DNA of 61,466 nucleotides, counting the filler, from Dugesia japonica (Eukaryota), in assembly GCA_001938525.1 (NCBI GenBank). It is 6 parts of 6 records of this genome, joined end to end, with 100 filler letters (N's around TTAATTAATTAA, not from the genome) between each part and the next. Parts side by side here need not be neighbours in the genome. Positions count along the whole stretch, not along the records: positions 8,304 to 19,470 come from MQRL01631098.1; 5 more parts are not named here. One strand, 5' to 3'. Under the pieces are notes generated by a model. That model had not been told where the DNA came from and ran no database searches. It was given only the letters and a program-made list of their open reading frames with translations. The position numbers and the translations under genes are program-made. This document shows positions 4,074 to 51,435 of the stretch, one piece after another; the first letter of the stretch is position 1; each line of letters begins with the position of its first letter.

Positions 4074-4197
4074 GGTTAGCGATGCGCTGGTTTGTACCTG
4101 GAAATAAAATATTAAATTGCGTGCATTTAGTGTGGTTGTCTTTTATGTTCCAAATTGCTATAGTTAAGTTTGATTCATTCTATTTTTTATCTTAGAT

Positions 4198-4563
4198 ATG
4201 GAATCAGTTTGGATACGTGTCGTGGATAGAAGGACCCGACGGCTAATCCTATGGAGGTGTCACAACCCTCATCAACGTGATGCCGGGATTTTAGTCGATC
4301 GCTCGTATTTACCCCCGGTCGAGTCCATAGTGGGACGTATTAACGATTTTGGTGAAAGACAAAGATATCGGGTGTGGACTGGTCCCGATCGCACACATAC
4401 TACTTCTTTCACGTATCAACGGACCACTCCTCCACCCGCCCCTGCGATTCAGGCGTTCATAGCGAATCTTTCCTGGGGAGTCCGAGAACCAGATGGGGTC
4501 ACGGATGTGGAAAATACCGCCCCCGACCCCGATAATAATAACCCTCCATCATCCAATGTTTAG
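4198..4563 (+). CDS. Orphan 121-aa protein, cargo of element A
   Basis: Intact ATG ORF, clearly more GC-rich than flanks; TTTTTTATCTTAG ends at 4195; AATAAA at 4576. Confidence 0.6.
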   Translation: MESVWIRVVDRRTRRLILWRCHNPHQRDAGILVDRSYLPPVESIVGRINDFGERQRYRVWTGPDRTHTTSFTYQRTTPPPAPAIQAFIANLSWGVREPDGVTDVENTAPDPDNNNPPSSNV

Positions 4564-4789
4564 TGTTGATAGAATAATAAATAAGTATTCAATTCATGCT
4601 TTAATATAAATTTTCGAATGAATAAGAGTTCTAGTAGTCAAATATAATTAGATTTTAATTTTAATTTTTTTTGTGTAATGAGATGGGCCGTATAATTTCA
4701 TTTATTAACGTTGGAGTAAAATGATCAACTGATCTAATACTAGTTGTATTAAGTAAAAATTTATCTCATTAGGCCCTATTTGTATTTTA

Positions 4790-5149
4790 GTGCATTCGTC
4801 TTTAAATAGATTCCAGGCCCCTACTAAGAAAGTACGGGAAGATAAAGATAACCAAGAGATGACTTGGGACCTTTATAGGATGGCAAAAAGGCGATGGGAA
4901 GCGGAAATCGCCACAGCAGACGCTAAAGTAAAGCGATACAAACGTAAATGCCTAAATTTTAAGGCAGAGATGGAGGCCTCCCATAATCAAGAGCGGGTGT
5001 GGAAGTCTCAGGTCGAGACTCTTACCAACATGATCAAGNNNNNNNNNNNNNNNNNNNNNNNNNNNNNNNNNNNNNNNNNNAAGTTACGAGCCACGATGCC
5101 TCTACCACCCCTCTTGATTGATAAGGGCACTCAAACGAATCGGTCTTGA
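4790..5149 (+). CDS. Orphan basic coiled-coil protein, cargo of element A (spans an N gap)
   Basis: Open frame begins at TATTTTAG (AG 4789-4790); first ATG 4859; charged helical sequence; AATAAA at 5179. Confidence 0.5.
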   Translation: MHSSLNRFQAPTKKVREDKDNQEMTWDLYRMAKRRWEAEIATADAKVKRYKRKCLNFKAEMEASHNQERVWKSQVETLTNMIKXXXXXXXXXXXXXXKLRATMPLPPLLIDKGTQTNRS

Positions 5150-5366
5150 GTTACTCTAACTACATTTTAGTAGTTTTTAATAAATTAATTTTGTCCTACT
5201 TTGTCTAAGTCATTACGTTAATTCTAAATTTGATTTTTGCCAAATTGACTATACTTTTCATTCAGTGCCCCGAATTAACTTCCCCAACAGTATCCGGAGG
5301 TGCCATAGAATTATGCGCCACTTACTGGTCGAATGACATTTAAAACGTAAGACCGATAAGGCACTT

Positions 5367-5642
5367 ATGAGACATCTCAATCAGAGGGATCAACTTATAA
5401 AAAAATTAGATCTGATCGTAAGAAAACAAACGGATCGGGCAGCCCAAACCAAGGCCCTTGAGGCAGAGAATAGACAAATACTGTTGACAAAGATCGAATT
5501 TCTCAAACAGTATATCGCTGACCTCTCCCGACAGATAAACAGCCCCACAATATTACAATGGGATGATAACGACGATATAGCTGCGTTCAATTTCTCTGTG
5601 TCGATCCAGACCAATGGTTGGATCCAGGAGCGCTTGATTTAA
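5367..5642 (+). CDS. Orphan coiled-coil protein, cargo of element A
   Basis: 91-aa ATG ORF; in-frame ATG at 5313 separated by one TGA; TTTTCATTCAG ends at 5265; AATAAA at 5660. Confidence 0.5.
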   Translation: MRHLNQRDQLIKKLDLIVRKQTDRAAQTKALEAENRQILLTKIEFLKQYIADLSRQINSPTILQWDDNDDIAAFNFSVSIQTNGWIQERLI

Positions 5643-5891: not shown

Positions 5892-7195
5892 TGTTAGGGT
5901 TTCATCTAGGTGGATTAAATTTAATAATTAAGTCTAGGGTGACCTAGTAAAACCCCACGTAGAATTTAATCTGGCATCTCCAAAAATCTAGATCTTTGGA
6001 ATAGAGCCGTTGATATGGAATCCGAGTACAAACTCGCATTCCTTTGATTTGGGCTCAAACTTCACGATATTCACTTGATTTTCAAATTATTCTTGATTCC
6101 TATTAATTATTTTCCTAATAGTCTTTATTTTGTCGATTTAAACTTTATGAGTCGTTTAGCAGTCTTAACTATTTTATCAAGTTTAATCTGAATAAATTAT
6201 AAATTTTTCCAGTTTGGGGTTAAATTAATTTTCATAAAAACAAAAAATAAATTTTAACAGCAAAAAGTATATTAAAAATTCCAACTTTACTGGTGGTACA
6301 TTAACTTAACAATTAAAACAATCTATAGAACTAACGTGATCTAAATCCCGATACAGAGCAAGCATAATGTTGTGATATTCATTATTTCCATTGTTGATAG
6401 TGACCCGAGAGGTCCTCCATAATGTTCCATATTGGAATCAAGCCGGAAATTGCTTTACCTGAAATCAAATAGTTAAAGTAATAACCTTCTGTAATAATTG
6501 AAATTTTTTGTTAGACTTCAGTATTTTTTCTTGATAAAGATTTATTTTTTGGTGAAAATTACATCGGTATTTATACCTGTTTTTCTTCACACCTTCGTTT
6601 CTTTTATTGGTTTTTTGAAAATATACGATTTTTCTAATGCTTCTATTGGCTTGATCGTCACATGAGTCCTTCTTATTGGTTAATAGTTTTGAATTCCAAA
6701 ACTATTGGTCAATCTTCAAACCCTTGTATCTTCTTTCCTAATTTTGCTATGACTTTTTAACTTAGATTTTCGAAATTTCCGATTTCTCTTGACCATAATG
6801 ATTTTAATTGCTAATTTTTCCTTCACGGGTAGTTATCGATTTTGTCATATTTAACAAAATGTTTAATTTTGTTTAAAAATAAATCATTTTAATTCGTAAT
6901 ATTTATTTTATTTAAATAAATATATTATTCATTTTATTTTCTTTTTAATTAAAATTTTGATGTTCATTTTTTCGTTTTCCGATCTGAAATTAATTTAAGT
7001 TCGTCGTTTTTTCTTTCATTAATTAATTTAATCAATTCCGAAAAACTTCTGTCCCGGAATTCAAAGCTCTTGTTTAATAGATTCTTCGTCTTGTCCTCTT
7101 TATTGATTGCTCATAGTGCTCACTTTCTCCGATCAATTTCCAGCTCACTAATTGAACCTAAAAGACAATTATAATAACACTTAAATTCACATACA
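5892..7195 (-). mobile_element. Large LTR fragment (element B), reverse orientation
   Basis: Starts TGTTAGGGTTTCATCTAGGTGG, the near reverse complement of the end at 19407; colinear inverted similarity to 17800-19407; minus-strand TATA at 6570-6575 and several ATTGG. Confidence 0.75.
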
Positions 7196-7639
7196 CTCGG
7201 AGTTTGCATTCAATTGTACTGTATCAAAGTCAACAGAATAATTATACACTTCTAGAATTTAAAATGGCCACGGAAGAAATGCGAGTGGCCTTTTAAATTC
7301 AAGGGGAAGAAAGAAGGGACTTGCCTGTCTTAGTCCGTATTTTTACAAATACTCCTATAAACAACAGTAGAATTAGAAAATACGAGTTATTAAAAATATA
7401 TTCTGAAAATTTACATAAACAGTAAAAATTTATTAGGATCATGTAAATTTTAAAGTTTGATAAATTTGTAAAAAATCGCGCCTAAAAGTGTAGACATAAT
7501 TCCAAAATTTCTTATTTGAGCATTATTTTTAAATTTTGATGTCATTTAAATACTTTAAAGAAAATATAAATTAAGAATATTACATTGCATTAATATCAAT
7601 TATATTTAAAACCTTAAATATTTACTTTGCGGAAAGACA

Positions 7640-8203: not shown

Positions 8204-8303
8204 NNNNNNNNNNNNNNNNNNNNNNNNNNNNNNNNNNNNNNNNNNNNTTAATTAATTAANNNNNNNNNNNNNNNNNNNNNNNNNNNNNNNNNNNNNNNNN
8301 NNN
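8204..8303. other. Artificial assembly spacer (also around 19515, 30479, 40259, 51184)
   Basis: Identical N-TTAATTAATTAA-N blocks; the core has stops in all six frames. Confidence 0.95.
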
Positions 8304-8369
8304 AAAAGTAGAATTTAATTGTTGGAAAAAAATTACATTATTATTAATAATATTGATGTATTATATTTT

Positions 8370-8532
8370 AAAATTATTGAATTTATTTTTCGACTTTGCC
8401 TTTGTCAGGAATTTACTTTTTAAAAATTAATTAGTAATTTTTAAAAAGCCAATTCATGACGAAGACAAAGTCTAAATATAGAATTATTATCAAAAAACAA
8501 ATTTTGATCGAAGCTTTTATTTTAAATGAATA
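8370..8532. mobile_element. Degenerate palindromic Penelope-like element end with two mutated hammerhead motifs
   Basis: Same arms as 27009-27244; reads QILIEAFILNEY, similar to a GIY-YIG C-terminus. Confidence 0.6.
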
Positions 8533-9259
8533 TATTTCATTTGTTAGGAACCAATTGTATTTCCAAAATAAAGCAAATATTATTCTTGATTTTCCTTTAT
8601 CAAATCACTCTTTCAAAACTCAAATTGATTATTGGAATAAAATATAAAAATTAGGCTTCATCCATATATTATGTACGCAATAAACTCCAGATTCTGAAAC
8701 ATCTCCCGTCACCCTCTTGCATCGCGTACATTTTTAGACCACCCTCACCTATATGTACATACACAAGGCGGTCTTTTCTCAGTGTAAATTAGCATAAAAT
8801 AATTGTCGTTTTTAAAAATGGTTTTCATAGCGTATATTTTTAAAATTGAAGTTTTTATTAATTCAATAATAGTTATTAATTAAATGTACTTTTATAGAAA
8901 AATAAAACCAAAAAATAGTAATTTTGGCAAAAAATCAAGCCCTAATAAACCTGAAGAATTATAAATCATATTTGTTCATACCAGTGATAACCCTAAAATA
9001 TGGACTAAATCTAAATCTGGAATTAATTTGATCACTATGATAATATAAACTAAAAATGTGTTAATCATTTAAAGAAACAAAAACAAATTAAATTAAAGAG
9101 ATGAATATTAAAACTTCGATTAATCTTAATATATATATATATATATATATGTATATACTTTGATTATTTTCATTTATAAATTTTAACATATTAAATGTTT
9201 TCCGGTTAGCCAAGTACTATATAAATATTTCATTGAAATTTTATCCAGGAAATGATGAA

Positions 9260-9650
9260 TAAAATAATCGAAAAATAAAAATTTCGATGGTTTATACAGA
9301 CAATATTCTCATATTTACCGAAACAAAGGAGTAATACTATTAAATAGTCAATAAAGAATTGACAGAAACTAAGAATACTGGTTTAAGGGTATAATCTGGA
9401 GAAATGCCAATTCATACGAAAGAAGATCAAATTTCTAGAACACGTAATCAGTAAAGAAGGTATAAAAACCGATCCAACTAAAATAGAAGCAATTAAGAAC
9501 TTTGGTAAACCAAAATTCTTTTAGATGAGAAGCTTTTTGTGAATTTGCAATTACGATCGCAAATTTATTAAAGACTATTCGAAAAAATCTAGATTGTTGG
9601 AAGAACTGTGTAGTGGACAAATTAATAAGATTGAATGGGCAAACAAATTA
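9260..9650 (+). pseudogene. pol: Ty3/Gypsy reverse transcriptase C-terminal remnant
   Basis: VYTDNILIFTET (YxDD decayed); NLEKCQFIRKKIKFLEHVISKEGIKTDPTKIEAIKNF; CNYDRKFIKDYS. Confidence 0.85.
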
Positions 9651-10316
9651 AAATAATAATAGCAATAATGATAATAAAAATATTTTCCAGTAGGATGGAT
9701 ATCAAGAATAATTAAAAATAAAATAACTATCAAATTAATTGTAATGATACTAATAGCCTCAATAATATTAGCAAAAAGACAGGTTAATAAAGCAAATTAA
9801 CAAATGATATTTCTACTATTATGGCTCGACATTAATAATTTGGGTAGATATTACTCATAATAACCACACGTAAGTTTAATACAACTGATTCTTATTAGTG
9901 ACTAGTCAGTAGCACATCATCAACGGTAGTGACTAAGAATAATTATAATCAACAAAATTGGATAGATTTAACAAGTAGTGCAATAGTTGGATGTCAGTTA
10001 CACTATCATAAGTTTAAGAGCTACAATGCTTAATATTGTAAGTTCTTTATTATTAAAAATTTTTGTATTTTTNNNNNNNNNNNNNNNNNNNNNNNNNNNN
10101 NNNNNNNNNTTTTAAGTAAAAGTTTTTACATGAAAATAATTATATGACAATTTTTAGATAAATTTTAGGTCAATTTTTAGATATAAATTTATAGAGAAGA
10201 AGAAATTATATATTTATTTACAAAATATTGGTTTTTTTGGGGTGTGTTTAACTAAAAATCATGGGAGTTTATATACCTTTTTTCTCTATCATTGGCCCAC
10301 TATTTTTGTTTTTCGG

Positions 10317-10340
10317 TTCTTACATTTTATTGGCGCCAAC
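10317..10340 (+). promoter_or_regulatory. Candidate LTR end and tRNA-Lys-type primer-binding site
   Basis: ...TCTTACA TTTTAT TGGCGCCAAC, one base short of TGGCGCCCAAC. Confidence 0.4.
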
Positions 10341-11404
10341 TCCAAAACTCTTACATTTTCGAAGATTTTTAGTTATTCTATTGTTGCCTATTTTTAGAGC
10401 ACCTGCTGACTTTCTTGTCTTTATTCTTATAACGTTTTTTGGTTTACCATTGGCCTAAACTTTAAAGCCTTTTTACCAATCTTTTGAAAGTGCTAACATC
10501 TTTGACGCCACAAAATCAAATTCCTCTTCACATAAGCTTCCTAATTTTTCTTGTCCCGAAGGTTTTGATCCATCCGTAGGAAAGTTATTCGCCTTTTTAC
10601 AATTTCTGACTGAATTATTTTTCTTTTTCTGGAAAAACTAATTAATTTTCATTCATTATTTTTAGTTGTATTTTTATAATATTTCGTTTATTTTGTTTAT
10701 GAATTATAATTCCTATAATTGGATTTGATTAATATTATTATTTTTGTCACTTCTTTATTCTTAATGTACTTCCTCTTATCTTCTTTTGATTATTTTTTAC
10801 AATTTATTATCTAGATAGAATATATTATTAAATAATACCCTTGTTTCATATTCTTTCTTCTTACATAGCTAAAGCTAAAAGTTCTTTTTTAATCGGGTGT
10901 TCCAACAATTGTAATAACAATTTAGTAAATCTAACCTGCATCTCATCAACTGTAACAACAACTGCATCACCTTTGTCTTCTCAAATAAATGACTTTAAAT
11001 ATTTCATTACATTAACTGCACTAGGAATAGCATTGAATTTAACGTTTTAATTGAATTGGTGGTGATAGCAACCTCGCAGAATGTAACTTCTCACTGAATT
11101 ACCTAAAAATATTTTTAGTTATGATTACCATAGTAACATCGTCTCATTGAATTGCATGGATTGTTTAAAGATGATTGGCTTCAATAGTGACAATCTCTCA
11201 GCGTATGACGTAGTTTTTGTTTACCAATGGTGATAGCAACACCATCTCTTTAAATTGGATAGAATATCTCGGTTTATTAATTGTGGTCATAATATCATCT
11301 CATACAATTGCACAATATAATTTCAGTTTATTAGCTGCGATAGGAATTACTTCTAATAAAATTGTACAAAATAATTTCGGTTTAGTAACTGTGAAAGAAA
11401 TATT

Positions 11405-11830
11405 TGTTCAGATATAAAAAATAATTTAAATTTAATTGCTCTTATAAAAAATGATTTTTCATGGCTAATTTCATGTAAAATGGTTCAGATATAAAAACGT
11501 ATTTTTCATAGTTAAATTCAGGCATAATTGTTCAGATAGAAAAAGGAATTGAATTTAATTGCTCTTATAAAAAAGGTTTTTTTTTCATAGCTAATTTCAT
11601 GTATAATGTTTCAGATATAAAAAAGAATTTAAGTTTAATTGCTCTTATGATAAAGGATTGTCTCATAGTTAATTTTGCGAATAGTGGTTAAAATATAAAA
11701 AGGATTCCACGCTTCTAAACAAAAAAAGGATTTTCACGCATAATTATTCGAATATTAAAAGGATTTCAAGCTTAATTGTTCTCATAAAATGGGAATTACA
11801 TGGTTGATTTTACGCATAGCTGTTCAAAGA
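11405..11830. repeat. Degenerate tandem array of alternating ~33 and ~46 bp subunits
   Basis: Recurrent TTCAGATATAAAAA, TTTAATTGCTCTTATAAAAA and TTCATAGCTAATTTCATG. Confidence 0.75.
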
Positions 11831-12218
11831 TAAAATGCAATTAATAAGCTTCAAGGGCTTGGACGAGGACGTCGAATTTGAACAAACAAGGTTGGGTAAG
11901 GAATGAGGAATGTATTTCCAGGGCATATCTAAAATAACATACAAACTGAAACCAAAACAAAGGGGTACAAAGATAAATAATGAGGGTAAAATCATATGGT
12001 CGGAGATAAATAAACAAAAATCTTGTTACAGGTACAGAGCATTCAGCGGAGCAAGCACATTCAAATCGGAAATCGTTGCAACAAATAAGCACTATCCAGG
12101 TATAAAATTTTAATAATTATCATTATAGATGAACAACGATAACCAGTCATTGAACCAAAAGCNNNNNNNNNNNNNNNNNNNNNNNNNNNNNNNNNNNNNN
12201 NNNNNNNNNNNNTTATAG

Positions 12219-14150
12219 ATGAACAACGATAACCAGTCATTGAACCAAAAGCCTGTGGAGAATTACCAGGGTAAACCATTTGACGGAAACCTCGACTATG
12301 TAGACGAATTCCTATGGAGCTACGAACATCACGCAAATTTCTATGGTTATAGTGAAAAAGATAAAATCAAATTGGTAGCATTATACCTGAGAGAGAATGC
12401 TTTAAAAGTTTACCGACAACATAGTCAAGAAACTGATGAACCATTCAAGTCACGGAAGGAAGTAGACCTACTTCTTAGACAAAGTTTTGAAGAACAAAGA
12501 GACTTCCTACAAGCATCAAAGGAATTCTCACAATGTCAGCAGCAGGACGAAAGGTCATCTCAGAATTACATTATACTATTTAGACAACGATTGTTTAAAG
12601 TACCTTGGTCAAAGGAAACCTGCGATTAGTGTGTCGGAATCTACATTAAAGGAATCAAAAGTAAAGAAATACAACAAATAGTTACACTAAAAGAATCCAA
12701 AACAATTATGGAAGCCATTACAATACATCGAGAGGAAGAGAAAAAGATCCTAGGGCATAATTATGTATCCATGCGATGCAAGAAATATCGCAAAAAAGGA
12801 CATACGGTGAAAGAATGCTTATCAAAGAAGAAGAAATGTTGAAAGTGCTGGCGCAAGGGACACAAAATGGAAGAGTGTCCGAACCCAGCACTCATATGTC
12901 GCTATTGTCATAAAATGGGTCACCGATTATTAAATTGTCCCAAGAAAAGATGTCGAGGTAGTAGAAATAATATGGAAGAAAAAGCGGTACGTTGTTGGAA
13001 TGGAAAATGGCAAGTTTGAAAAATATTACCCAAGAATAATGAACCAGAAAGATTGTATATGCTACATGTTGAATCAGACAAGCCCCCCATAAATCAAGAA
13101 ATGAAGAAAGCAGCAAAAGTTCCGATCATGAAAGCAATGGAAGAATGAGCACTAAGAGAACAAGAAAATAAACTGATATGGGGATGGTATGAACAACTTG
13201 CAGGAAGAAAACAAGAAAAAAATGAAACCTTTGGCAAGATTAGCAGGCCTAACAAATGAACAAACGATAATAAAATGTTTCAGATCTGGCTTACGAGACC
13301 CATTGGTAAGAAGTCATGAAGCTTCAAGCAAACCCCCTGATTTGACTACCGCTATATTAAAAGCGGAAGCAATGAGTAAAATATTAGCAGAGCAACGAAT
13401 AATTTTAGGAAAGGAAACTGCCAGTCAAGAAACAAGGTGTAAACAAATTAACATGAAATTTAGATGTCAAAATTGCCGGAGAACGCATAATAATACTAAT
13501 CAATGTACAATCAAATGTACTTAGTGTAGCATCTGCGGTAGGAAAAATAACCTTATGGATAATTGTTAGCACGGATATTGTAGCAAATGCGGTAAGAAGG
13601 GGCACCCGGAAGAGAGATGTCTTCTCAAGAGAATCCAAACAGAAGAGGATCAAAGAGACGATAACGAAGGTAATGAAACTCATACCCAACAAATTGTGAA
13701 CAAAAGCAAAGAATCAACAAAATTGCATATGCTAAGAATCAAAATACCCGAAAGTCTAGGAATTAAGGAATTATTATCAAAGGCTCAGCGAGTACCAAAA
13801 TGTTACGATTGCAACAAACGAGGACACCAAGCTAAAGATTTTCAACCAAAAAATAAAGTGTTATATCTGTAAAAAAACTAGGTCATATTGCAAGATTATG
13901 TCGGCACAGAATATACATTGCAAAACCACGGAATGTAACTGAAGTCGGAAGAAATTTTGATTCCGAAAAAAATCATTCTTCAATGAAATATGATCAAGGG
14001 TATCGAATAGAAAAAGATAAAGAGGAGGAAAATATAAAGAACAAAGAGATCAAAGAAATTCTGTTCAATGAAAACTGTCAGTTACGAGAACAAATGAAAA
14101 ATAATCAGCAAAGAATTACTCGACTCAGAGAAGCCCTGCTAAACTAAAAC
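12219..14150 (+). pseudogene. gag: Ty3/Gypsy Gag with a second capsid-like block and three CCHC clusters
   Basis: KPFDGNLDYVDEFLWSYEHHANFYGYSEKDKIKLVALYLRENA; second block IIKCFRSGLRDPLVR...PPDLTTAILKAE; knuckles such as CRYCHKMGHRLLNC and CSKCGKKGHPEERC; scattered stops. Confidence 0.85.
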
Positions 14151-14289
14151 TCAAAGTAAGATAAAGCTCGCCGGAAGAAGTAATGCAAAATGAAAAGAAA
14201 ATCTCTCCAGACAAAAAATAAACACAGAAACCAACGTACAGGAACAAAATGAACAAATAGCAGTAATAGAAACACAGGATGGCGGATGT

Positions 14290-14619
14290 AGCCTTTCACT
14301 AATAATACGAATTAACAACCAACCAATGAAAACACTGTTAGATACTGCAGCATCTCAATCAGTATTAAACATAAAAAATATATCTCAAGGCAAGAGAAAA
14401 GAAATAAAACCCCATACAGCACGAGCAACAGGTGTTAACGGAAAAACAGTGCAGATTATTGGGACATTAGAGTGCAATACACAACTCAAAGGAAGAACAA
14501 TAAAACACTATTTCCTTGTAATGAAAACCAAAGTAGATGCAGTACTAGGAACAGATTTAGTGCCAAAACTGTTAGTGGGAACAAAGTTAGATTTTACTAC
14601 ATTTCAAATTGAAGTGTAA
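14290..14619 (+). pseudogene. Retropepsin-like aspartic protease
   Basis: TLLDTAASQSVL (DTGA variant), ATGVNGKTVQIIG flap, DAVLGTDL. Confidence 0.85.
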
Positions 14620-15299
14620 AAGCCAAGACCAGAAACGATAAGCATGTTGTAATTAAGCCGGAAAATGAAAGAAGTGAATCACGTAACTGCAAATCCGGAA
14701 AAAGACCAAAACATCTTGGATTATCAATGCCAAAATTGCTCAACTAAAGAAATTAGGAATATAAAAACCGGGGTGATAACCAAAGAAGGGAAGCAGAAAT
14801 TGATTGGATAAATAAAATCCAGGAGATCATCAAAGTGATAAGTGAAAATAAGCAATTAATTTCAACTAGAACAACCGAACTCATAGGAGCCCTCCATAAT
14901 TTTTAACCAAGGATAAATCAAGAAAATTAAGTGTTATTAGAAGAATTAGTTTACAACCAAGGTCCAAGATTATCCGGTCTAGATCAAGAATAATTATAAT
15001 AAACTTTTTCTGGCTGTACAATAAGAAAAAACTAATAATATCAGGAGACTACCGCTGGTGTGATATAGCGGAATTAATTAGAAATAACGGCCAAGAGTCA
15101 AGAGAATCAGCAGACGGAAAATCTACAGAATTATATTTTGGTGCTACACTTATTGACAGCGAGTCCATGGACCCAATGCAATTAGGGGGGACTCTGAAAA
15201 AATGCTGGAATCGATATTTTCGTTCAAAGTAAAGGAGACGGGCCAAACAATAGACATCTAAACCGATTAAAGATAAGCGTAAGAAAAAAAGGTCTCCGA

Positions 15300-17584
15300 G
15301 CAATAACATTATTTATCGAACAGATACTATCAAAATTGCAAGAACCAAAATTGGCAATGAATAAGAAAACAAAGTATGAAAGGAACATTAAAGAAGAAGA
15401 AATTTTGAATGTATCTAAAGATGTACTACGAATGGTAACTATGCAGCTACAATAATTAAACAAAATAACTCACAAGGTAAATCTAATGCCTGAAGAAGCA
15501 GAAGAGAAAACCGCGTTAGTAGCAAGGATACTAAAACTCATAGAACAAGATCGGCGGATCATTATCAGTATGCAAAAATGCAAAAAATGCGAAAAGAAAG
15601 GAAATATAAAAGAAAGATGTTGGGCAGATAAAATATGCCACTACTGTATCAAAAAAGGTCACATGGAAATATTGCATCAATAAATGCAAAAGGGCTAAGA
15701 AAGAAACAATACAAATTCGCCACAGTAAAGAAGAAGAACAAGAAAAGGCAGTGACCAACTCAATTAAAATCTGCATGCTACAGGTGGAAACTGTAGAATC
15801 AATAGAACCAGACGACTTCACAGAAGTAGTAACAAAAAAGAAAAAAGGAAGAAAGACAACTGGAGAAATGAAAACCAGAGTCACTCTAAATATACAGGAA
15901 GCTGGAATAAATCAAACATATAGCCCAGAACAAGAAAACTATATAACAAGGACGAACTCAAATCAAGAGTCGGTACTATCATCAAATAACGACAATACAA
16001 ATCAGATGGAAGTATTGTTATGGATATTAACGTTACAACTAAAGGAGTTGGAAGAGGTAACCAATGCAGTACAGAAAGTATCAGTAGAAGCAATAGTAGA
16101 AAATATCCTCAAGTCAAGGCTATCAAAATTCAGAGAAAAAGAAAAAAGGACTAAATTCGCAATGCAATTTTTGTTAAAAACATGGAATGAAACGTTAGAA
16201 GTAATAATGAAATTCGCAATACTTAAACAAAAAGAAAACTATAAATGTAGTGAATGTGGTAAGCTCGGTCATTTGGCAACCTGGTGCTGGAAAAATAGAC
16301 TATGGGAATATTGCGGGGAATCAGATAACCCAAAGAGACTTTGTTGGAAAAAACCATGCCAATTATGTGGCAAATTAGAACATACAGAGAAACAATGTAA
16401 AAAAGAATCGCATATCGAATCTATCTTTAGAGGAGAGGGTGGTATGAGATGTAGAAAAAGAGACCACACGATAGCTTCATGTGGGTTAAAATGAAAAAAA
16501 TTTGGCCGCAAAGGACATACTGAAATAGTATGCCAGCCAGACAAACAATGTACTAAGTGTAGAGGGAGAGGACATTTAGCAGAACATTGCAGTATTCCTA
16601 GAGGTTTCGACTGTGGTAAAACCAGACATAACATGAGAAGGTGTCGATTTAAAGCAAGCAATGAAGACTTTGCTATAATAATAGAAAGATCTAAAAAGTT
16701 GTATATGTTACAAGTAACCAATGGAGAAGAAAAAATGCAATTGCACGAAATCCTAAAAGGAAATAAACTAGTGACATATGAGGAACAAGATAATCACCAG
16801 GCAGTACCAGAAGACTGGCAGAAAATGCTTAATACATATGATGATCGGATATCTAGATTAAAGGAAGCTTTACGGTTTAGTCAAGTAAAATGCCGAATTT
16901 CAAACTCTTAGCAGACACTGCAATAGAAGAAAAAAGAAATGCACTGGTATTGTACGATATAGCTATGACCAACTTACAAAAGAGAGTAACATTCAGCCAG
17001 AAAAATTGGGAAGAATATCAAGCATTATTTAAACAAAAGAAAAGGACTGAGATAGCAAAACTTGGAGCTGTCTGTCAAGCTAGGAAATGGAAAACAAAAT
17101 ACGAGGAATTAAAAAGACAAGCCAAACAAATTGACCGATCGAGTAAATCAAATCTGGACGAGGACAAAAACCTGGTGGAAAAATACAAGGTACAGTTGTT
17201 AAAAGAAGAACCAGCCAAAAGGGAAGAAACGATACGGACGAAACTCTAATTGTTGGCGGAAGAACAAAGAGGGACTAATAAAATTTTTTTAAAAATGATT
17301 AAGGATAGAGAAACTTTCTACGAACAGCAACAAAGCTGAAAGGCCAGGGCAAATTGGAATCAACCAATGCAAACAACTGGCCATATTCAATAACCAAGGG
17401 GGAAAATAACGAGATTTCAAGTAATGTAGGCCTAATGAAACCCATGGCGATAATAATCCCAATAATGAAGAAACAATCTGCCAACGTTATGGAGCAATCA
17501 AACAATCCGATAGCAATTCATTCAGGAGAAGCCATTGGTCATCGCTATTCTTCGCTTTCAAGGATGACAGAAACTTTTGTCTGA
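15300..17584 (+). pseudogene. Post-protease polyprotein remnant with further CCHC clusters and coiled coil
   Basis: CKKCEKKGNIKERC, CSECGKLGHLATWC, CQLCGKLEHTEKQC, CTKCRGRGHLAEHC; purine-rich plus-strand bias; ORFs 15486, 15751, 16633, 16890, 17354. Confidence 0.7.
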
Positions 17585-17799
17585 TCTTTTTCCAAATAAA
17601 CTTGACTATATATTAACTATAAATATTGGTGTGTATTATTAAAACATGTTATAAACGTGGTATGTAGAATTAAAAGGTCATTGTACAGTTTGTGTCATAT
17701 CATGTTCTGAATTACAGTTAGTCTTAATCACTTTATATTATCTAATCTTGTGCTCGCTTTAAAAACTATTCGAACAATATAGTAGTTGATTTATGATTG

Positions 17800-19407
17800 T
17801 GTATGCTGATTTAAATGTTATTGTAATTACCTTTTAAGTCGTGTGAGCTGGAAATCGATCGGAGCAGGTAAGCACATGAGCAACCTTCCAGGAATAAATA
17901 CGAAGACTTAAGTCAACAAGAGTGTTAAATTCCGGGACGGAATTTTTTCGGAAGGGGAAGTATTTTGTTTGGGTGAAACACCTGAGAATAGAAAATAAAC
18001 CAGCGATAGGTAAACCTGGAATTCGAAAGAATGTCACATGAAAGAAACAAAGAACACAGACAAAAGAAGGAGTTAGGCCAGTTAAGGAAAGGAATAATTG
18101 AAGAAAAGACCGAAATTAATGAACTAAATATTGAAGATGATCCGTAACCTATTGAGTCACAAAGAGAGAAAAGAAATGTTGGAAGACACAAACAGACTAA
18201 CAAAAAATGGACAATTAATAACGGAAGAAAGTAATTCATTAACTAAAAAAGAAAGTCGAAGGAAATGAATAATCAACTTACAGAAAAAAAATTAAAAGAA
18301 TTAATTAGTAAAAGAAAACAGCGAAATTAAATTAAATTTAGATCTGAAAAACGAAAGAATGAACATCAAATTATTAATGAAGAAGAAAATAAAATAAATA
18401 ATTTATTTATTTAAATAAAATAAATCATACAAATTAAAATGATTTACTTTTAAAAGAAAATTAAATACGTTATAAAATATGGCAAAACGACAACTTTCCA
18501 TGGTGACAAAATTAGCAATTCTAAGAATTCTGGTCCAGAAAAACTCTGACATTTCACAAATTTAAGTTAAAAAGTCATAACAAGATTAGAAAAGACGATA
18601 CAGTGGTTTGAAGATTGACCAATAATTTTGGGAATCCTAAAATAACCACCAATAAAAAGAACTCGTGTGACGAACAAGCCAATAAAAACGTTAGAAAAAT
18701 CGTACGACTCCCAGTAACCAATGAAATAAACGAGGGTGTAGAAGAGAACCGGTATAAATACCGATGTGATATTTCATTAAAAACTACTCTTTTTCAATTA
18801 AAATTACTGAAGCCAATTTTTGCGGTAATTATTGTTTCATTTAATTCATGGTGTAACGATTTCCGACTTGAATATGGAAAATTATGGATGACTCTTAGAA
18901 TCGTTGATGGCTATCGAAGGCGAAACAATTCATGTGCTATGCTGCTCCGGATCGGGGTTTAGTTATGTTTGTTTTATAAGTTAGTTAAGTTTATGGACAA
19001 GTGACCGTAACAATTTATAACATATTTTTCACTTGTTAAATTCGTTTCTTTTTATTTTTATTGATTAAATAATCTATAGACTAGAAAAAAATTATGATAG
19101 ACTGCATTTAGGATAGATAATACACTAACATCTAATAAAAGACGCACAAAGTGAAAACGGATATAATAAGGACTACTTAGAAAATAAGTAGTAGGAATCA
19201 AGTATGATTTAAAAATCAAGCGTGTATTTTAAAGTATGAACCCAAAGCAAAGGAATGCGAGTCTGTACTCGGATTCCGAGTCAACGGCTCCATTCTGAAG
19301 ATCTGGTGTTTCGGGGACACCAGAATAAATTATTCGCAAGTTTTTACTAGGCCCACCACCCTTGACTTAATTACTAAAAATACAACCCACCTAGATGAAA
19401 CCCAACA
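17800..19407 (+). mobile_element. Large LTR (element C), same family as element B
   Basis: Ends CTAGATGAAACCCAACA; four CCAAT boxes at about 18619-18722 and TATAAA at 18753; left boundary uncertain. Confidence 0.75.
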
Positions 19408-19409
19408 TG

Positions 19410-19470
<61 letters not shown>

Positions 19471-19570
19471 NNNNNNNNNNNNNNNNNNNNNNNNNNNNNN
19501 NNNNNNNNNNNNNNTTAATTAATTAANNNNNNNNNNNNNNNNNNNNNNNNNNNNNNNNNNNNNNNNNNNN

Positions 19571-27244: not shown

Positions 27245-27439
27245 AATAATAATAATAGTAGTAATAATAAAAATAATAATGGTTTTGGAAATAATTAAGA
27301 ATAATTTCAACCAATATAAATTAAGATAAATTATTTTTATTAATGATCAGTTTCTATTTCAATTTGTCTTATTAAATAAGTTTATAGTTTTAAATTGAAA
27401 ATAAAAATATTTTCGAAATTAATTGTTATTATTTGGAAA

Positions 27440-29030
27440 GTAAATTATCTTTAGAAAATGTACCTAACATGGTGGTGAACATAGTGAAACCAGATTTAAT
27501 TACAGACAGATTATTAGCAAAGATGTTCTGCAGAGATAATATTGAAAAATTCATAAATCGTTGGGAATAGTATTTTAATGCTGAAAACAAATGCCCAGAT
27601 GAAACAACACGAAAGACCAGTATATTGTTTGTAAGATGACAATTTGCTGGAAGAATATTCGAAGACATTGAAAAAGATTGAAGGTTTTCTGGCTCGTTTA
27701 CGTTTGGCATTTAAGAAAGAAAAATCTGTTATCAGAGATTTTCGAAATTTGATTAACTAAAAGCTTGGAAATGAAGAGATTCAAGTTTATTTTAAGAATG
27801 TAACAGATTTAGTGAAAACATGCTAGTATATTGTTTAAAAGACTAACAAAGTTGAAGAAGAGTATAGAATATAGAAGAAATTGAAGAAACCATAACGTTA
27901 GTAGATCAAGTAGAGAAATGAAAAGATAAATTTGATGTAGTTAGAAGTTACGCCAGAGTTACAAGTCAAAATTAACTGAAATCTGTCAACCATATCAGTC
28001 AACCAAAAAAGTTGTAGAGAGTTGAACTTGCCATAAAAAGGACATATAAGTCTAGTTTGTCCAGATACAAACCCAAGCAAAATGATTTGGATGAAAAGGT
28101 GTTCCATATTAAAAGGTTATGTCAAAAGATGAGGTGTAAACGATGTGAAAATTGTGAACATAAGGCATAAAAATGTTACACCAATTTGAAATTGAAAAAA
28201 ACAACTGGGAACTTTGTGACTATTGGAAGCCAAGAAACTGATATAATCAAATACACGCGATTGTAGACAAAGAAGAAACGAGAGATATGAAGAAGTATAT
28301 GACAGTAATTTCGGAAGACAATAACCAAAAGACATTTCTCCACCAGTAGAAGAGTTGGTTGGAGACATCCATTATTAAATGAAGTCATTAATTATTCTCA
28401 AGTGGTCAATAGTTAGATGATACCGGGAAAGTAAAAAAAAAATATGCAAGTTCTTAAAGACGGAAAATTTTGGGATGATAGAAAAATAGAATGAATTAGA
28501 AGATTTAGGTAGAACAGAAAACCAATATTTCGAACCATAAATCGGAAGGCAGAGCAAGTGCTACGGTATCAATTCAAGGAAATAAAGATGAATGCCTTTT
28601 GAAAACATGGGCTCAAATACAAAAAAAACGCTATTATTTTGAGTTATAAATTACAAGAACTACATTTGAAAGATTGAGATGTGCAAATCATAATACAACT
28701 GAAATTGTTGAGAAAATCAGAACTGGAGTAACAATTGATGGCGTTTGTAAAGAGGTTACTTTCTTACTTGCAGAAACAGTGACATCAGATCTGATTGAAG
28801 AAATATATGAAGAAGACTTTTGAATACATGTTTGTACGAAAAGAGCACAGTAAAACTAATGAAAAAAAATCGACAATCACATTTGTAATATTGAAGAAAG
28901 TTTGGGAGACAAATTAAAAAAGGAGAGCCATTGACAAGAGCTTTAAGTATTCTGACGATCAGAGATGACCAACGGTTATTGAACATAATTGAAAATAAAG
29001 AATATGTTTTCATGGCAGATAAATGAGATT
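27440..29030 (+). pseudogene. gag: Decayed Ty3/Gypsy gag and start of pol
   Basis: PNMVVNIVKPDLITDRLLAKMFCRDNIEKFI; decayed knuckles; PPVEELVGD; homologous to gags at 46960 and 55718-56445. Confidence 0.75.
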
Positions 29031-29056
29031 TAGGACGCATTATTATTTTAAAGAGG

Positions 29057-29621: not shown

Positions 29622-30534
29622 GTTAGTAGTAAAAATTTTGTTTAATTTTTTTTTCTTTAATAAATTGCATAGATTCTTATTTTGTGTTTTATTCTCACTT
29701 CAATGAAAACTAATTGTAAATAATTTTGAATAATTAATAATTTATCAGTTATAAAAGTATTTCAACCACGCCTAAAGATGAACTATGTTTGTAATATTAT
29801 TTAATGATAAAATAATTAATGATTTCATTTAATAATTGTAAAATAAATGTTCTAATTAAAACAAAATAAATAAATAAAAATATGACAATATTCTTATTAT
29901 TTAGTTGTAGTGAGAGAATAATTTCATGTAGTGATTTTGATATATTATTTACTAAATATTTAAATAAATTTCAGATAAAACAATTTTCTTTGAATACTAA
30001 CAATTCTTATATAATTTATTTGTGAATTAGATACAAAAAATATGTTTCTCTCTGAATAATAAAATAAATTACAAATACGATTTTTAATTTAATACTGATT
30101 TTATTTTAATTAAATAAAGTATACTTTTTCTTTCAGGTATTTGGTTATTAAAAAGAATTATAAAATTATAACTAGATTTTATTAATTAATTTTCTTTACG
30201 AATTTTAGATTCATTATTATCACTGTAAGAATTTTAATGTTATTAAAATTGANACGTTATTATTTCAATAAAAATAAAACTTATTTTTTAGATCTTGAAA
30301 TTATTAAAACAAATATAGAAAAACAAAATAAAAATATTTTATGATAAACAAAATATGGACAAAATGTTAAAAATTTTAAAGTATTTATGAAAATAAACAT
30401 TTAGAAAGAGTTTGTCAAAATATTTCTAAGAATANNNNNNNNNNNNNNNNNNNNNNNNNNNNNNNNNNNNNNNNNNNNTTAATTAATTAANNNNNNNNNN
30501 NNNNNNNNNNNNNNNNNNNNNNNNNNNNNNNNNN

Positions 30535-39760: not shown

Positions 39761-40316
39761 ATTTCGCTCTAATTAAATGAAACTCTAGACATGCGCGCCC
39801 AATTCCTCAAAAAGGAAATATTCAAAATAATACATTAATTTAGATCAGCGCGCATCATAGTGTAGAGAAACTTATGCAGTATATTGTGTTGAGTGAAAAA
39901 TTAAAATAGTTGTTATTAGTAGGAAACGTCACTGAAATATAATTGCATCATGTTGGATCATTACTGGGATCTTTCAGAAAATCAATTTAAAACATTCAAT
40001 TAATTTATAAATATTAGTAAATAGATTGAAATTTATTATCAATGGTTTAGATTATTTTAAAAATTACTAATATTTATATTGAAGAACACATCTAACTGAT
40101 AAAAATATTTTAAAAATGATTTCAGTAATAAAAATAATAATATTATCATTATTATTATTGTTTTACAATTGCAATTATTGCGAGAATAATTGTTGGACAT
40201 AACCATTGATCGTTNNNNNNNNNNNNNNNNNNNNNNNNNNNNNNNNNNNNNNNNNNNNTTAATTAATTAANNNNNNNNNNNNNNNNNNNNNNNNNNNNNN
40301 NNNNNNNNNNNNNNAT

Positions 40317-45660: not shown

Positions 45661-45759
45661 TATTAATTTAATTGATTCGTTTAAAGAAATAAATAAAATG
45701 TTATACATTATTAATAAATTAAAAAAAACTAAGATAATCAAATTATTCAATGTAAACTA

Positions 45760-46585
45760 AAATACCCTCATAGGTCTTATATTACACAGTTGCTATGAAA
45801 ATAATATACTCATAAAACCTATATTACTTAGTTGATAAGTACATAATGCTATGATATTATACAAATATTACACTCATAAATCCTATATTCCATGATTACT
45901 GTGTACACATACCTTCATAAGCCTTATATTAAACGTTTTCTATGTAAATAATTCCTTCATAAGTATAATATTATACGGTTGTTATGTAAATAAAACAAGG
46001 TAACTATGACAATAATAGACTCATAAGTCTTATATTACACAGTTACTATGTAAATAAAACACTCAAACACCCTATAATATATGGTAACTATGTAAATATT
46101 AAAAGGTAACTATGCAAATAATACACTTATAATCCTTGAGTACATGGTTGCTATGTAAAAAATGCATACAAAAACCATTAAACAGTTGTTTTGTAAATAA
46201 TATATGCGTAAACCCTATAATAGACGGTTGCTATTTAAATAATACAAGGTAAATATGGAAATAATATACTCATAAACCTTATAATACTGGGTTACTATTT
46301 AAATAATACACACAAAAATCATATATTTAACGGTTGTTATGTAAATATTAAATGGTACCTAAGCAAATATTACACTATTAAACCTTATATTACATGGCTA
46401 ATATGTAAATAATATACTCATAAACTCTATATTACATTTTTACTATGCAAAAAGTACCTTCATAAGCCTTATATTACACGTTTGTTATGTAAATAATTCC
46501 TTCATAAGTTTTATATTTCATAAACCTTATATTTCATTGTTGGTATGTAAAAAATACAAGGTAGCTACGCAAATAATATACTCAT
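45760..46585. repeat. ~42-bp degenerate tandem array with ~21-bp half units; resumes at about 49347-49505
   Basis: Consensus-like AATAATATACTCATAAACCTTATATTACACGGTTACTATGTA. Confidence 0.9.
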
Positions 46586-49346
46586 TGTGAGGAAATGTAT
46601 GTTTCTTAAATGTTTTAAGTGTTTTTATTTTTTATGAATGTGTAATTGATGGAAGCTTTATTTGTTTATTGAGAAGTTTTAGAAACTCTTGTTTAAATAA
46701 TATTTGTGGCGGATTTTTAAATACGGAGTAAAATTGTAATTATTCTTTAGGAACTTTATTCACTTTTGGTATAAAGCAATACGCAAGGTTTAAATATTTT
46801 TTATTAATTACTAATTATATAAAGAATAGTATTTTGGTGTAATTATTTTCTAGATAAAACATTTGTCACATTTTAATATAATATTTTGCAATATTATTTA
46901 AATCTTGCAGATAGTATTTTTTCATTTATTTATTGTTGAACAATTGTTTTTAGAAATAAATGTTATCAACAGAAGAAAGTGTTTTTAATGTAGTGTATGT
47001 AGGCCCAACCCCTAATATGGTGGCAGCCGTCAATACGGACTCCATAGCGGACCGGTTGATGCCCGAAATATTTGGAAGGCATGATGATGTCGCAGAATCT
47101 ATAAGGAAATGCTACTTATACTTTGAAGTCAAGGAAATAACTAATAAGAGAGAGCAAGAAAGATTACTTACTTGCATGATAAAAGAAGATCTACTAGGAA
47201 AATATGTTAAAACTTTAGGAAAAGCAGATGGTTTCCAAGGGCGTTTGAGTAGAGCTTTTAGTAAAGAGAGAGAAAACAGCAAAACTCTTGGTATTGTGTG
47301 CAGGAAATAAAAAGGTTTAGGAAGACGTGGTACTGAGTAGAAGAGATAAAGTAGAAGAGATCAAAGAGACAATCAAACTATTAGATAAAGTAAAAGTCAA
47401 TGGGGATTCAGATAATGTTATGAGTTTTGCAAAAGTGGTTAAAGGTACTAGAGTAGTCAATCAATCTTTAGAAATAAGACGATCAGAAAATCGGAGGATA
47501 TAAAAAGAGACATCTAGAAAACCGAAATTATGGTAGCGAGCAACGGAATAGTAATATGGAGGGGCGGCCGACGTTGTAGGGGATGTAATAAAGAAGGTTA
47601 TTTAAGACGGGAATGTACTTTAAGTCCAAGGATAAGATATTGGACATGTGGACAAGAGGGTCATGTCAGCAGAAAATGTCCAGGTAGACACCAAGTTCAT
47701 TGTTTTCGATGTGGATTGAAAGGTCATATCAGTATGGAATGTCATGGAATAAATAACAGTTTTGGAAATTATAGAAAATATGATACGGATGGAAATTAAA
47801 AAGAGTATGTTAAGAAAGACGGGTAATGAAGAAGTACTAATCAGGTGAATAGAGGTAATAGATACAAACAATTGAATGCCCTAGAAGGGGGGTTGAGCCA
47901 ACAAGAAGAAGATGAAATAGAAAGTGTGGAAGTTAACGCTAGATTCCCAAAAGCACGGGCTCTAATAGTAGGGTAGTTAATCGTAGCTATATATTAAAAG
48001 GTAGTTCTATCAAATATCCTCGATTTATGTAAAGATGGGAGAACGCGAATGTGGTAGGACGGAGCTAATAGTTTTCATAGTAGGAAGTCGAGTACTGCCA
48101 AATATGATTGGAAGAATGAAAATTTTAAATTTTGATTATGCCAAAATGACGAAGAACGAAAAAAAAAGAAAGGAAAATTTATATCTGTAATTTGGAGGCC
48201 AATTTTGGCAGACATGTTAATAAAAACGAACGCTGGCAGAGAGCAAGTGCTAGTATAGAATAGGAAGGTGATAATCATTTAAAGGAGATTTGCAAAATGA
48301 GAGGAGAGGTGTTCATAGCGGATAAATGGGATGTTGGCAGGACTCATTTAATCAAACATAATATAGTTACAAAAGGTGGACCTATTAATGTAAAACCATA
48401 TAGACAGCTGATCAATCTCGAAGATATGATAGATGATGCAATTAAAAATCTGTTAGAGAATGACATTATTCGAAATTATAATTCACCATGGAACACACTT
48501 TTGGTATGTGTGTGGAAGAAGGAGAAAAAAGACATAAGATTATGTCTGGATTTTAGAAGATGGAACGAGATCACAGAAAGACAAGCTTTCCGAATATTGA
48601 GGAAATGTTGGACAAATTGAGTGAGACAACATATTTCAGTTTGATTGATCTGGGCAATGCGTATTACCACGTGGAATTGGACAAAAACTCTCAAGAGAAG
48701 ACGATATTCTCCACAAAGCAGGGACAGTAAAATTTTAAACAGATGCCATTTGTAATAGCGGCAGCTCCTGGAACTTTTCAGGAGATGATGGTTGAAGTAA
48801 TAAGAGGAATACGAGGAGCAATGGTATACTTGGGTGACATATTGGTGTTTTTGAAGTCGAGGGAGGAACATTATGAGATTACAGAAAATGTTTTAGACAG
48901 AATCTTGGAAGCAGTTCTGAGAATAAATCCAAAAAATGCTCTTTTATGAAACGGGAAAATTTTTAGGACACATAATAAGTGAGAGAGGAATTCAAACAGA
49001 TCCATTAAAAGTAGAAGCAATAAAATCTTTTGGAGAGCCAAAATGTGTGAAGAAACTACGTAATTTTTTGGCATATGCAACTACTACTGGAAGTTTATAA
49101 AAGATTATGCCATGAAGGCTAGAAAACTGGAATAATTATGCAGTGGTCAGGGCAACGCAAAATTTGTTTTGTCTGCAGAGTTGTCGGAGATTTTCGAAGG
49201 ATTGAAAACAGCACTAACCATAACACTAATGCTGGGGTTCCCAGATTTACGGAGAGAATTCATCTTGGACATGGACGCAAGCTTTAGCATGGTTGGCGCA
49301 GTGTTGGCACAAAAAGACGAATATGTGAAAGAAAGAGTGATTGCGT
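46586..49346 (+). mobile_element. 3'-truncated Ty3/Gypsy element: 5' LTR (46586-46870), gag, RT, start of RNase H
   Basis: TGTGA...TCACA LTR; gag 46960; knuckles such as CFRCGLKGHISMEC; RLCLDFRRWN, IDLGNAYYHV, MPF, YLGDILVF, FILDMDAS...GAVLAQ. Confidence 0.9.
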
Positions 49347-49959
49347 AAACCCTATAATACTGGGTTACTAGGAATTAATACAATCATAATCCTTATAATA
49401 GATGGTTGCAATGTAAATAATACACTCACAAATCTTATATTTTATGGTTGTTTTGTAAATAATACCAGGTAACTATGCAATTAATATACTCATAAACTAT
49501 ATTATTCAGGATTTTAAATAGATTTTTTATTAAAACTTGCATTGGTAAGGATATTTTTTATAGAAAATTACCACTAGTAATGTTTTTAAAAAAAGTTCTG
49601 TTTTTTATCTTTTTGTAATGAAAAGTTTTAATTTGAATATTTATTCATGTAATTATCCCAAAGACTCGCCTCTTTAAAGTTTTTTGAGAGGTAAATTTTA
49701 TCATGCAAATATCAAAAAGACTTCCCTCTTTGGTTAGTTTTACTAGTTATATTTTTATAATGTAAATATCACAGACTCCTATTTGAAGTTTTTTGATAGA
49801 TATATATTCATAAATGCAAAACAGAAGGAATACAGTTGCAACACACATACACTGAAAATCACAAGTATGAGAATTTTTAAAACTCAACAAAGCCGCCATT
49901 TTGAATTTTTTAATAAACACAATAAATATGTAACTCAGATGCAACACAGATATACTGAA

Positions 49960-50560: not shown

Positions 50561-51435
50561 TTTAAATTAACTTTTGTTTTTAAATAATTTTTTTTTTACA
50601 TTTATTTTTTTTTAAAATTTTTTTTTCTATTTAAGTTTACGTGACTTATTAAAGTCTTTGTTAAACTTGCATTAAAACTGCACTTTTTTTCCCCCTACAC
50701 ACATGAAACAAAATTAAGACGAACCAATGATGATATAAAATGTGAATGATTATATATAAACCAATTCTCATTTCATTGTTTTTTTTCCGAATGAAAATAT
50801 AAATGAATCTAGATCAATTTCAATGGAGGCACACTGTCATGGATACGTGCAATGAGCAAGCAGTGGTAACATTATTTGTTTTTTTTTAAATGCAATTTTT
50901 TTTGTTAATTATTAAGATTTTTTATTTTTTTTTTTAAAATTTTTAAATATTTTTTTTTGTAAAATTTTTTTTTTAAAAATATTCATTTTTAAATTTTTTT
51001 CTTTAGTTTTTTTTTGTCATATTTTTTAGAAATTTGATACAATACTAAAGAAAACAAAATATCTAGTTACATTAAAAAATTTTTTTTGAATTTACCAACT
51101 AAACTATATATAATCACAAACCAAAATTATTGATTTTTTNNNNNNNNNNNNNNNNNNNNNNNNNNNNNNNNNNNNNNNNNNNNTTAATTAATTAANNNNN
51201 NNNNNNNNNNNNNNNNNNNNNNNNNNNNNNNNNNNNNNNTATACTAAGTATGATTAATAAGTTAATAATGTACATTAGTTGAAATGAACCTATATTTTCA
51301 AATAATTTTATTAATTTAAAATGGAACATATGTGAATGATTGACTGAATTATTTGGTTTGATAGATAGTACAAGAATAATTAATTGAGTGAAGAATTGAT
51401 AGATTGTATATAGTCACTTGTCAGTATTAGAGTCA

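Follow-up and report, generated by a model that had tools for sequence, protein, structure and literature searches.

The question raised by positions 12,219 to 17,584 of the stretch of Dugesia japonica DNA considered here (assembly GCA_001938525.1; 61,466 nucleotides (nt) in six joined parts, hereafter the window, of which 8,304–19,470 come from MQRL01631098.1) is how a retrotransposon comes to encode Gag, a protease and a long series of zinc knuckles with no polymerase behind them. On balance, we favour the interpretation that it is a decayed and 5′-truncated copy from a semi-autonomous family of the Ty3/gypsy type, which provides Gag, protease and five knuckle clusters and borrows Pol from a partner whose long terminal repeat (LTR) is similar. 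The copy itself is dead and decayed. For the family as a whole the evidence on pol is mixed: a pol-less 3′ end is found at some loci, and most copies diverge over 16,935–17,864.

All features of the element lie on the plus strand. The Gag capsid, of the Ty3/Arc type, forms the N-terminal 186 codons (12,219–12,776, with one stop) and was recognized by Pfam (Ty3_capsid, E 1e-7; Retrotrans_gag, E 3e-6), by ESM Atlas similarity (0.93) and by PDB comparison, in which only Drosophila Arc1 and Arc2 were matched (E 0.006–0.015). Reading frame by frame, we located 17 knuckle sites in five clusters (3 + 3 + 2 + 2 + 7), in the places and numbers given by an earlier reading of the DNA from its letters alone (the sequence-only reading). 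The ligands of the pattern CX2CX4HX4C are complete in six sites, one of which has an internal stop, while eight retain three of the four and three retain two; 14 sites thus have at least three ligands, whereas 500 triplet-shuffled versions of the element averaged 0.12 such sites and never had more than 2. Three clusters precede the protease: cluster A (12,777–12,938, three sites; zf-CCHC, E 0.005), cluster B (13,465–13,620, three sites) and a third cluster (13,801–13,901, two sites separated by a frame break; zf-CCHC, E 7e-4), which is followed by a heptad-rich helix (14,055–14,138) predicted as a coiled coil by a simple heptad score only.

A retropepsin-type aspartic protease follows in an open frame (14,278–14,616), as indicated by Pfam (Asp_protease_2, E 4e-6; RVP, E 3e-5), by matches to Ddi1 and to the protease of equine infectious anaemia virus (E 1–2e-4) and by a protein library. 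Its catalytic motif is D-T-A, a variant also present in P0013, a relative that is linked to a reverse transcriptase (RT). A Ty3/Arc-type capsid with a CCHC nucleocapsid is a gypsy characteristic, as is a retropepsin behind Gag, here a predicted enzyme. Among 1.84 billion representative proteins the protease retrieved 27 generic retropepsins of 22–37% identity, none of them a member of the element's own family, and RT was present in four of the 17 relatives scanned, beginning about 185–340 residues behind a protease motif. Word-indexed searches, which are weak evidence, returned no match at E 0.001 or better among longer proteins for capsid plus cluster A (0 of 484 candidates) or for the protease (0 of 290), nor among near-length proteins for the module described below as D (0 of 1597). 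Viral and metagenome contigs scanned with the protease, and with the polypurine tract (PPT) motif, gave nothing.

The claim of the sequence-only reading that this copy carries no RT, RNase H or integrase was borne out by every search applied to it. Pfam detected none of the three in six frames of 12,219–17,700 or in the three plus frames of 17,600–19,400, nor did a Pol domain appear at E 10 or better when the element with its leader was divided into 18 pieces; the profile scan which that reading had proposed as a check found zf-CCHC and the Ty3 capsid in the element, and neither RVT_1 nor rve. The window's own decayed RT, used as query, matched nothing in the element better than E 9.7, and the Pol parts of the four RT-bearing relatives gave nothing at an independent E value below 1 in 14,600–17,966. 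As positive controls, the same Pfam scan detected RT and RNase H at 47.9–49.4 kb (RVT_1, E 5.5e-15), and the relatives' Pol parts located an RT at 9.4 kb as well as integrase at 3–173, 58,671–58,825 and 59,155–59,352. It should be mentioned that the short RT piece at 9.3 kb was missed by Pfam alone, so very small remnants could escape Pfam, though not the search with relatives. The segment 14,617–14,960 was considered as a remnant of a protease–RT linker and found no support from Pfam or the relatives' Pol parts. The RT–RNase H–integrase order of gypsy elements is thus missing from this copy, which is therefore no autonomous member of gypsy and whose clade is not settable by RT; with Gag and protease and neither RT nor integrase, it has the composition of a semi-autonomous element.

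The 3′ end is that of an LTR retrotransposon. A PPT read from the sequence (17,950–17,962) precedes an LTR of 1442 nt (17,966–19,407; TGTT...AACA, with imperfect inverted ends), delimited from the sequence and from the end of a sibling, and a PPT before a TG...CA LTR is again in line with gypsy. No trace of Pol occurs in the 3350 nt that separate the protease from PPT and LTR, and the element spans 7.2 kb (12,219–19,407) without a 5′ LTR; the copy looks 5′-truncated. The sibling is an inverted 3′ end at 5,892–7,196 (minus strand), comprising spacer, part of the PPT region and LTR, with a likeness of 72% in the LTR (1154 nt compared) and of 75% in the spacer that precedes the PPT (161 nt). Its LTR is short by about 340 nt at the start, and its roughly 160 nt of the same spacer hold no long open frame. 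Both LTRs end at the same terminal motif, which is exact in the sibling and has three mismatches in the LTR at 17,966–19,407, because one end is a base longer than the other. Elsewhere in the window, an LTR-like start at 1,681 onward (plus strand) has nearly the terminal motif of 17,966 and no match in the body; it possibly belongs to a related family with shared integrase ends.

What stands where RT would be expected is a series of knuckle modules. A decayed but coding-like spacer without a family or RT remnant (14,656–15,329) leads to module C (15,330–15,786), with a predicted coiled coil and two knuckles (15,579 and 15,636), and to module D (15,787–16,716), with a predicted coiled coil and seven knuckles (16,246–16,644); two clusters and a coiled coil behind the protease had likewise been noted by the sequence-only reading. 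The interior ends with a charged helical tail predicted as a coiled coil (16,717–17,348; from about 16,935 common to few copies) and a non-coding-like 3′ spacer (17,349–17,949). Alignment of the helix ahead of cluster C with that ahead of cluster D gave z 6.5, a score that none of 200 shuffles reached, and the knuckles of both have a C-W linker in common, which suggests duplication of a coiled-coil/knuckle module. The best PDB match of cluster D is a retroviral nucleocapsid (E 0.07), CNBP is absent from its matches at E <1, and it weakly matches the knuckle cluster at 55.8 kb (tblastn, E 0.001). Its capture from a host multi-knuckle gene was considered and is not supported, the PDB matches at E <1 being weak.

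Coding capacity was gauged by a minimum-break test, in which the openness of the best coding path was compared with that of 60 shuffles per region. No shuffle was as open as the region before the protease, nor as C and D together (0.76 breaks per 100 codons, compared with 2.9 in the more decayed ordinary pol at 47.9 kb), and one of 60 was as open as the spacer behind the protease, as was one for the tail; for 17,349–17,965 the figure was 15 of 60, so there is no coding signal beyond about 17,348. Pieced together by hand from nine frame segments, the whole coding path has 1584 codons, 17 of them stops, and none of the 14 stop-to-stop frames of at least 120 amino acids (aa) in the window spans the element. 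The polyprotein that the sequence-only reading had placed at 12,219–17,584 does not have an intact frame, and its coding signal stops near 17,348 rather than 17,584.

A short hydrophobic motif, LxML, recurs behind several of these parts: LYMLHV (13,053–13,070) 38 codons behind cluster A, LHMLRI (13,723–13,740) 34 codons behind cluster B, ISMLxL (14,638–14,655) 7 codons behind the protease, and further sites 30 codons behind cluster C (15,769) and 18 codons behind cluster D (16,699). The pattern [LI][YHCSF]MLx[VIL] has five occurrences in six frames of the 61 kb, all within the element. Their hydrophobic make-up and position make them candidate cleavage sites of the protease.

The sequence-only reading had also described a second capsid block ("Gag-Gag"), and this part of it was not upheld. 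The helical block in question (13,152–13,437, with a frame break near 13,230) resembles, by eye, the C-terminal half of a capsid, and its sole support is ESM Atlas similarity of 0.87–0.90 to capsid clusters; its neighbours there are unnamed clusters (0.94), Caulimovir_coat_dom (0.90, 53% of members) and Retrotrans_gag (0.87). Read in one frame or across the break with X, it gave no Pfam, PDB or pairwise match, and pairwise it is not alignable to the capsid at 12,219–12,776. A fold predicted from the single sequence (predicted local distance difference test score 75, predicted template modelling score 0.35) resembled generic helices only (best Z 3.4, root-mean-square deviation 1.9 with 40 residues aligned), and Foldseek returned nothing for it at E 0.001. 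A second capsid is unproven.

Evidence that the layout is repeated comes from other copies. The stretch was traced by word sampling in 11 sequencing runs from seven studies of a single organism (0.36 of the sampled words in the best run), none of those listed for it by the run index being an RNA run. Contigs of four runs, placed at 80% likeness, numbered 13,891, 10,534, 10,027 and 1,511 and were mostly less than 95% alike to the element; with 10,027–13,891 contigs in three runs the element has multiplied as a family, although depth gives no copy number. Among 32 contig pieces listed (a further 36,345 lie outside the list), contigs 83–89% alike bridge capsid to cluster A (12,483–12,793), the linker behind A to B (13,099–13,520), protease to the region behind it (14,458–14,957), spacer to C (15,118–15,634), C to the D linker (15,424–15,844) and the D linker to the tail (16,696–17,194). 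As the element's own locus is present with zero differences in three of the four runs, these contigs represent other loci. The bridging contigs, the coding-like region behind the protease and the recurrent LxML motif together argue for one repeated design rather than scraps.

Among the 15 joints listed, of 159 between distant positions, four bear on the 3′ part. Those from 17,456 to 17,879, 17,672 to 17,847 and 16,841 to 17,301 each recur in three DNA runs, at a depth of roughly one contig, as does one from 14,609 to 16,935 with 282 letters between; joints from the tail to the 3′ end and from 14,609 to 16,935 imply that some other loci have no room for RT. At the locus of the last joint, modules C and D are absent and the protease is connected to the helical tail by those 282 letters; it is a shorter relative or an ancestor of the element's design.

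Transcription of siblings is weak at most. In raw RNA from four runs of three studies, of which 6–25% each was read, 27, 395, 54 and 53 reads were placed, mostly on the LTR, and only two of the 529 were at least 99% alike; 81–98% run on into unlike sequence, and several of the loose ends are A-runs. Interior cover in run X13 is thin (bin depth 0–2.5), with an excess of minus-strand first mates, a pattern that denotes plus-strand RNA in most stranded libraries. In the same run 32–33 reads cover 17,958–17,970 and none covers 17,603–17,863, while 13 reads come loose before 17,924; loose ends before 17,910–17,925 also occur in runs X16, X4 and X8. These ends point to relatives with the same PPT and LTR start and another interior, which is compatible with a helper family and only a hint of one.

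We propose that an intact element would be expressed from the plus strand as a single long polyprotein, which its own protease may cut at or near the five LxML sites, freeing the capsid and the coiled-coil/knuckle modules. Modules C and D would have arisen by internal duplication and taken the place of Pol. The element would supply capsid assembly and the particle proteins, and RT and integrase would come from the partner by way of common LTR ends and PPT. Retroviral nucleocapsid binds and condenses RNA; by analogy, the freed knuckle modules could bind and condense the element's RNA, their valency increased by the coiled coils, and so favour its packaging with the partner's RT and integrase. 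A further-reaching version, which we regard as quite unlikely, holds that this is a parasitic lineage in which pol was replaced by an LxML-released knuckle array acting as multivalent RNA-capture factors, which either win access to RT and integrase of the helper or protect the RNA against small-RNA silencing; no packaging-competition protein of this dedicated, modular kind was reported in the literature searched.

What is unusual is the number of knuckles, 17 in all with nine behind the protease, together with the recurrent motif; the lifestyle itself has precedents. Wheat already provides Gag–protease elements that have neither RT nor integrase, namely RLG_Sabrina_SA and RLG_WHAM, whose only products are GAG and protease and whose mobilisation is believed to depend on RLG_Wilma (PMC9744471). 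The present element resembles them as a high-copy LTR element with GAG and protease and no RT or integrase in the copy, but differs in having five clusters with 17 knuckle sites, as well as about 900 codons behind the protease, and in that neither a partner nor an LTR pair is seen. RLG_Quinta likewise combines Gag with an extra domain and has no RT or integrase; its LTR ends, primer-binding site and PPT are shared with its helper RLG_Cereba (PMC11302176), yet only GAG and the unknown domain DUF1 are listed for it, whereas our element has a protease and its extra domains are knuckle and coiled-coil repeats. TR-GAGs are also non-autonomous LTR elements with gag and PPT, but they are below 4 kb and Copia-like, with one open reading frame (ORF) of about 430 aa, one zinc finger, a primer-binding site and a PPT, and were selected for absence of protease (PMC4350172); at 7.2 kb, with a protease and gypsy-like, the element falls outside that group. 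Burro/GYPSM1 of planarians is, like it, a gypsy polyprotein swollen by extra domains that include zinc-finger parts (AIR1 motif, SMC-like and further domains in an ORF1 of 4,873 aa). However, Burro/GYPSM1 retains protease, RT, RNase H, integrase and env, has two to three CCHC knuckles after gag and carries its extras before the protease (PMC6431247); by that description our element is set apart, as Pfam matched no pol, in-frame env, BIR, ankyrin or BCL2 domain in it. Within the window, an ordinary decayed gypsy at 46,960–49,400 (plus strand; gag with three knuckles, RT, RNase H) and another at 55.6–56.2 kb share the closely spaced knuckles (three and four, respectively), but with one cluster each, and the first has RT and RNase H. 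A many-knuckle element without pol was not found in the literature searched, which lay outside Repbase, most subscription journals and supplements, so that a repeat-library entry may exist; the available parts of PMC11410931, PMC8532177 and bioRxiv 10.1101/2024.12.18.629116 hold nothing on this layout.

Several observations weigh against a family that is semi-autonomous throughout. Summed contig depth in run X1, which is patchy within bins, is 3,413–317,346 over 11,665–16,934 and 2,939–115,083 over PPT and LTR and falls to 168–1,358 over 16,935–17,864, a drop of 100-fold or greater that recurs as a dip in X4, X6 and X8; most copies thus do not have this copy's last 900 interior bases and may hold pol there. 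The non-autonomous character proposed by the sequence-only reading fits this copy, with its PPT, LTR, Gag and protease and no pol; for the family, the drop in depth leaves room for copies with pol. No partner element was identified in this analysis, no 5′ LTR that could pair with the 3′ one was found upstream or elsewhere in the window, no target-site duplication was placed, and no primer-binding site was seen by eye, no tool-based search having been made. No contig spans the whole element, and 12,793–13,099, 13,725–14,425, 14,957–15,091, 15,948–16,696 and 17,735–17,966 are unbridged among the 32 pieces. The LxML pattern was composed after its five sites had been seen, which overstates its rarity in shuffles, the third knuckle cluster has no such motif, and none of the 27 protease relatives carries it. 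The depth collapse, located exactly where pol could begin, is what most readily suggests an autonomous family with a very long Gag–protease–knuckle region and pol behind cluster D, lost or swapped in a few copies by deletion or recombination. Gypsy polyproteins with long insertions are known, as the ORF1 of Burro/GYPSM1 demonstrates (PMC6431247), RT occurs in four of the 17 relatives scanned, and reads and contigs share the PPT and LTR with another interior. In such a family, however, RT would be set off from the protease by some 770 codons of knuckle modules, compared with about 185–340 residues in the four RT-bearing relatives; no RT remnant was found after D, the inverted sibling has its short spacer before the PPT without a long open frame, and the D-to-tail junction is present at other loci. 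We hold this explanation to be possible but unlikely.

The semi-autonomous reading must also be set against three accounts to which we assign still less weight. That the region is a nest of fragments of unrelated gag genes is improbable: the lack of a spanning contig, the five unbridged intervals, the failure of block 13,152–13,437 to align to the first capsid and a contig that joins 13,012 to 13,862, skipping this block, would fit it, but all parts lie on one strand without an internal LTR match, other loci repeat six of the junctions, modules C and D share an origin, and one motif stands behind four clusters and the protease. The bridging contigs, the motif and the open-frame test largely exclude this case, which the sequence-only reading had named as its own refutation. 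That reading had also offered one half of an obligately split genome with a pol-only partner, and nothing points to a split; everything but Pol is present and the PPT and LTR start are common to other interiors, yet no gag-less partner was seen, an ordinary gag–pol gypsy lies in the same window, and the known helpers RLG_Cereba and RLG_Wilma are complete elements, so that we deem it highly improbable. Domesticated gag genes such as Arc, PNMA and PEG10 are often without pol, and the capsid matches are indeed Drosophila Arc1 and Arc2; a host gene of this kind is nevertheless barely conceivable given 17 stops, the adjoining PPT and LTR, the large number of diverged copies and near-identity in only two placed RNA reads.

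The surroundings add little to this picture. The window is AT-rich (G+C 18–39%), gapped and full of repeats, and reads as a eukaryotic genome; no tRNA gene was found in it. Directly upstream of gag, an assembly gap (12,163–12,212) is flanked by an exact 40-nt duplicate (12,123–12,162 and 12,213–12,252) and is probably a contig overlap. Paired runs of 44 N, 12 bases apart, occur at 8,204–8,303, 19,471–19,570, 30,435–30,534, 40,215–40,314 and 51,140–51,239, with the linker TTAATTAATTAA inside them where read; they are joins of the assembly and have no biology. A frame of 91 codons with one stop (11,838–12,110, plus strand) lies just upstream of gag inside the zone of high depth, without a convincing Pfam family, and an AT-rich run ending in AG ahead of the gag ATG, judged by eye, is perhaps a splice acceptor. 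Farther upstream are tandem repeats of 47 and 79 nt (11,443–11,656, plus strand; Tandem Repeats Finder), over which summed contig depth is far below that of the element; they may be leader or unrelated flank.

Other remains of mobile elements are frequent. An isolated RT fragment (9,269–9,647, plus strand) lies upstream of the element, and the three integrase fragments are all on the minus strand. Gag fragments at 27,245–29,035 (plus strand) and 55.6–56.6 kb, the second with four knuckle sites, are 75% alike over 377 nt, and a weak match to the start of RT is seen at 28,901–29,035 (E 0.001). A degenerate array (45,755–46,585 and 49,346–49,526; spacings of about 42, 64, 106 and 147 nt) flanks the 47-kb gypsy element. 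Three short frames (about 129, 130 and 100 aa) at 4,174–5,640 (plus strand), in a G+C-richer island and without a clear Pfam family, may belong to a different mobile element as its accessory genes. Among polyproteins of the ENA, P0002 (2296 aa) and P0007 (2855 aa) have a viral fusion glycoprotein domain ahead of the protease, an order that recalls Burro, and three D-T-G protease-like motifs each, a repetition that is odd; P0007 additionally has RT, RNase H and integrase.

The single copy described here is a fossil and bears no sign of host function. Pipelines that require RT and integrase score such elements as truncated, and even if most copies of the family carry pol, a gypsy whose protease and RT are separated by knuckle modules would still be odd. 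If, on the other hand, the design is family-wide, loss of pol would be paired with gain of about 900 codons of nucleocapsid-like modules that are open across many copies, and the family would constitute a natural test of what extra knuckles contribute to RNA packaging and to the exploitation of a helper.

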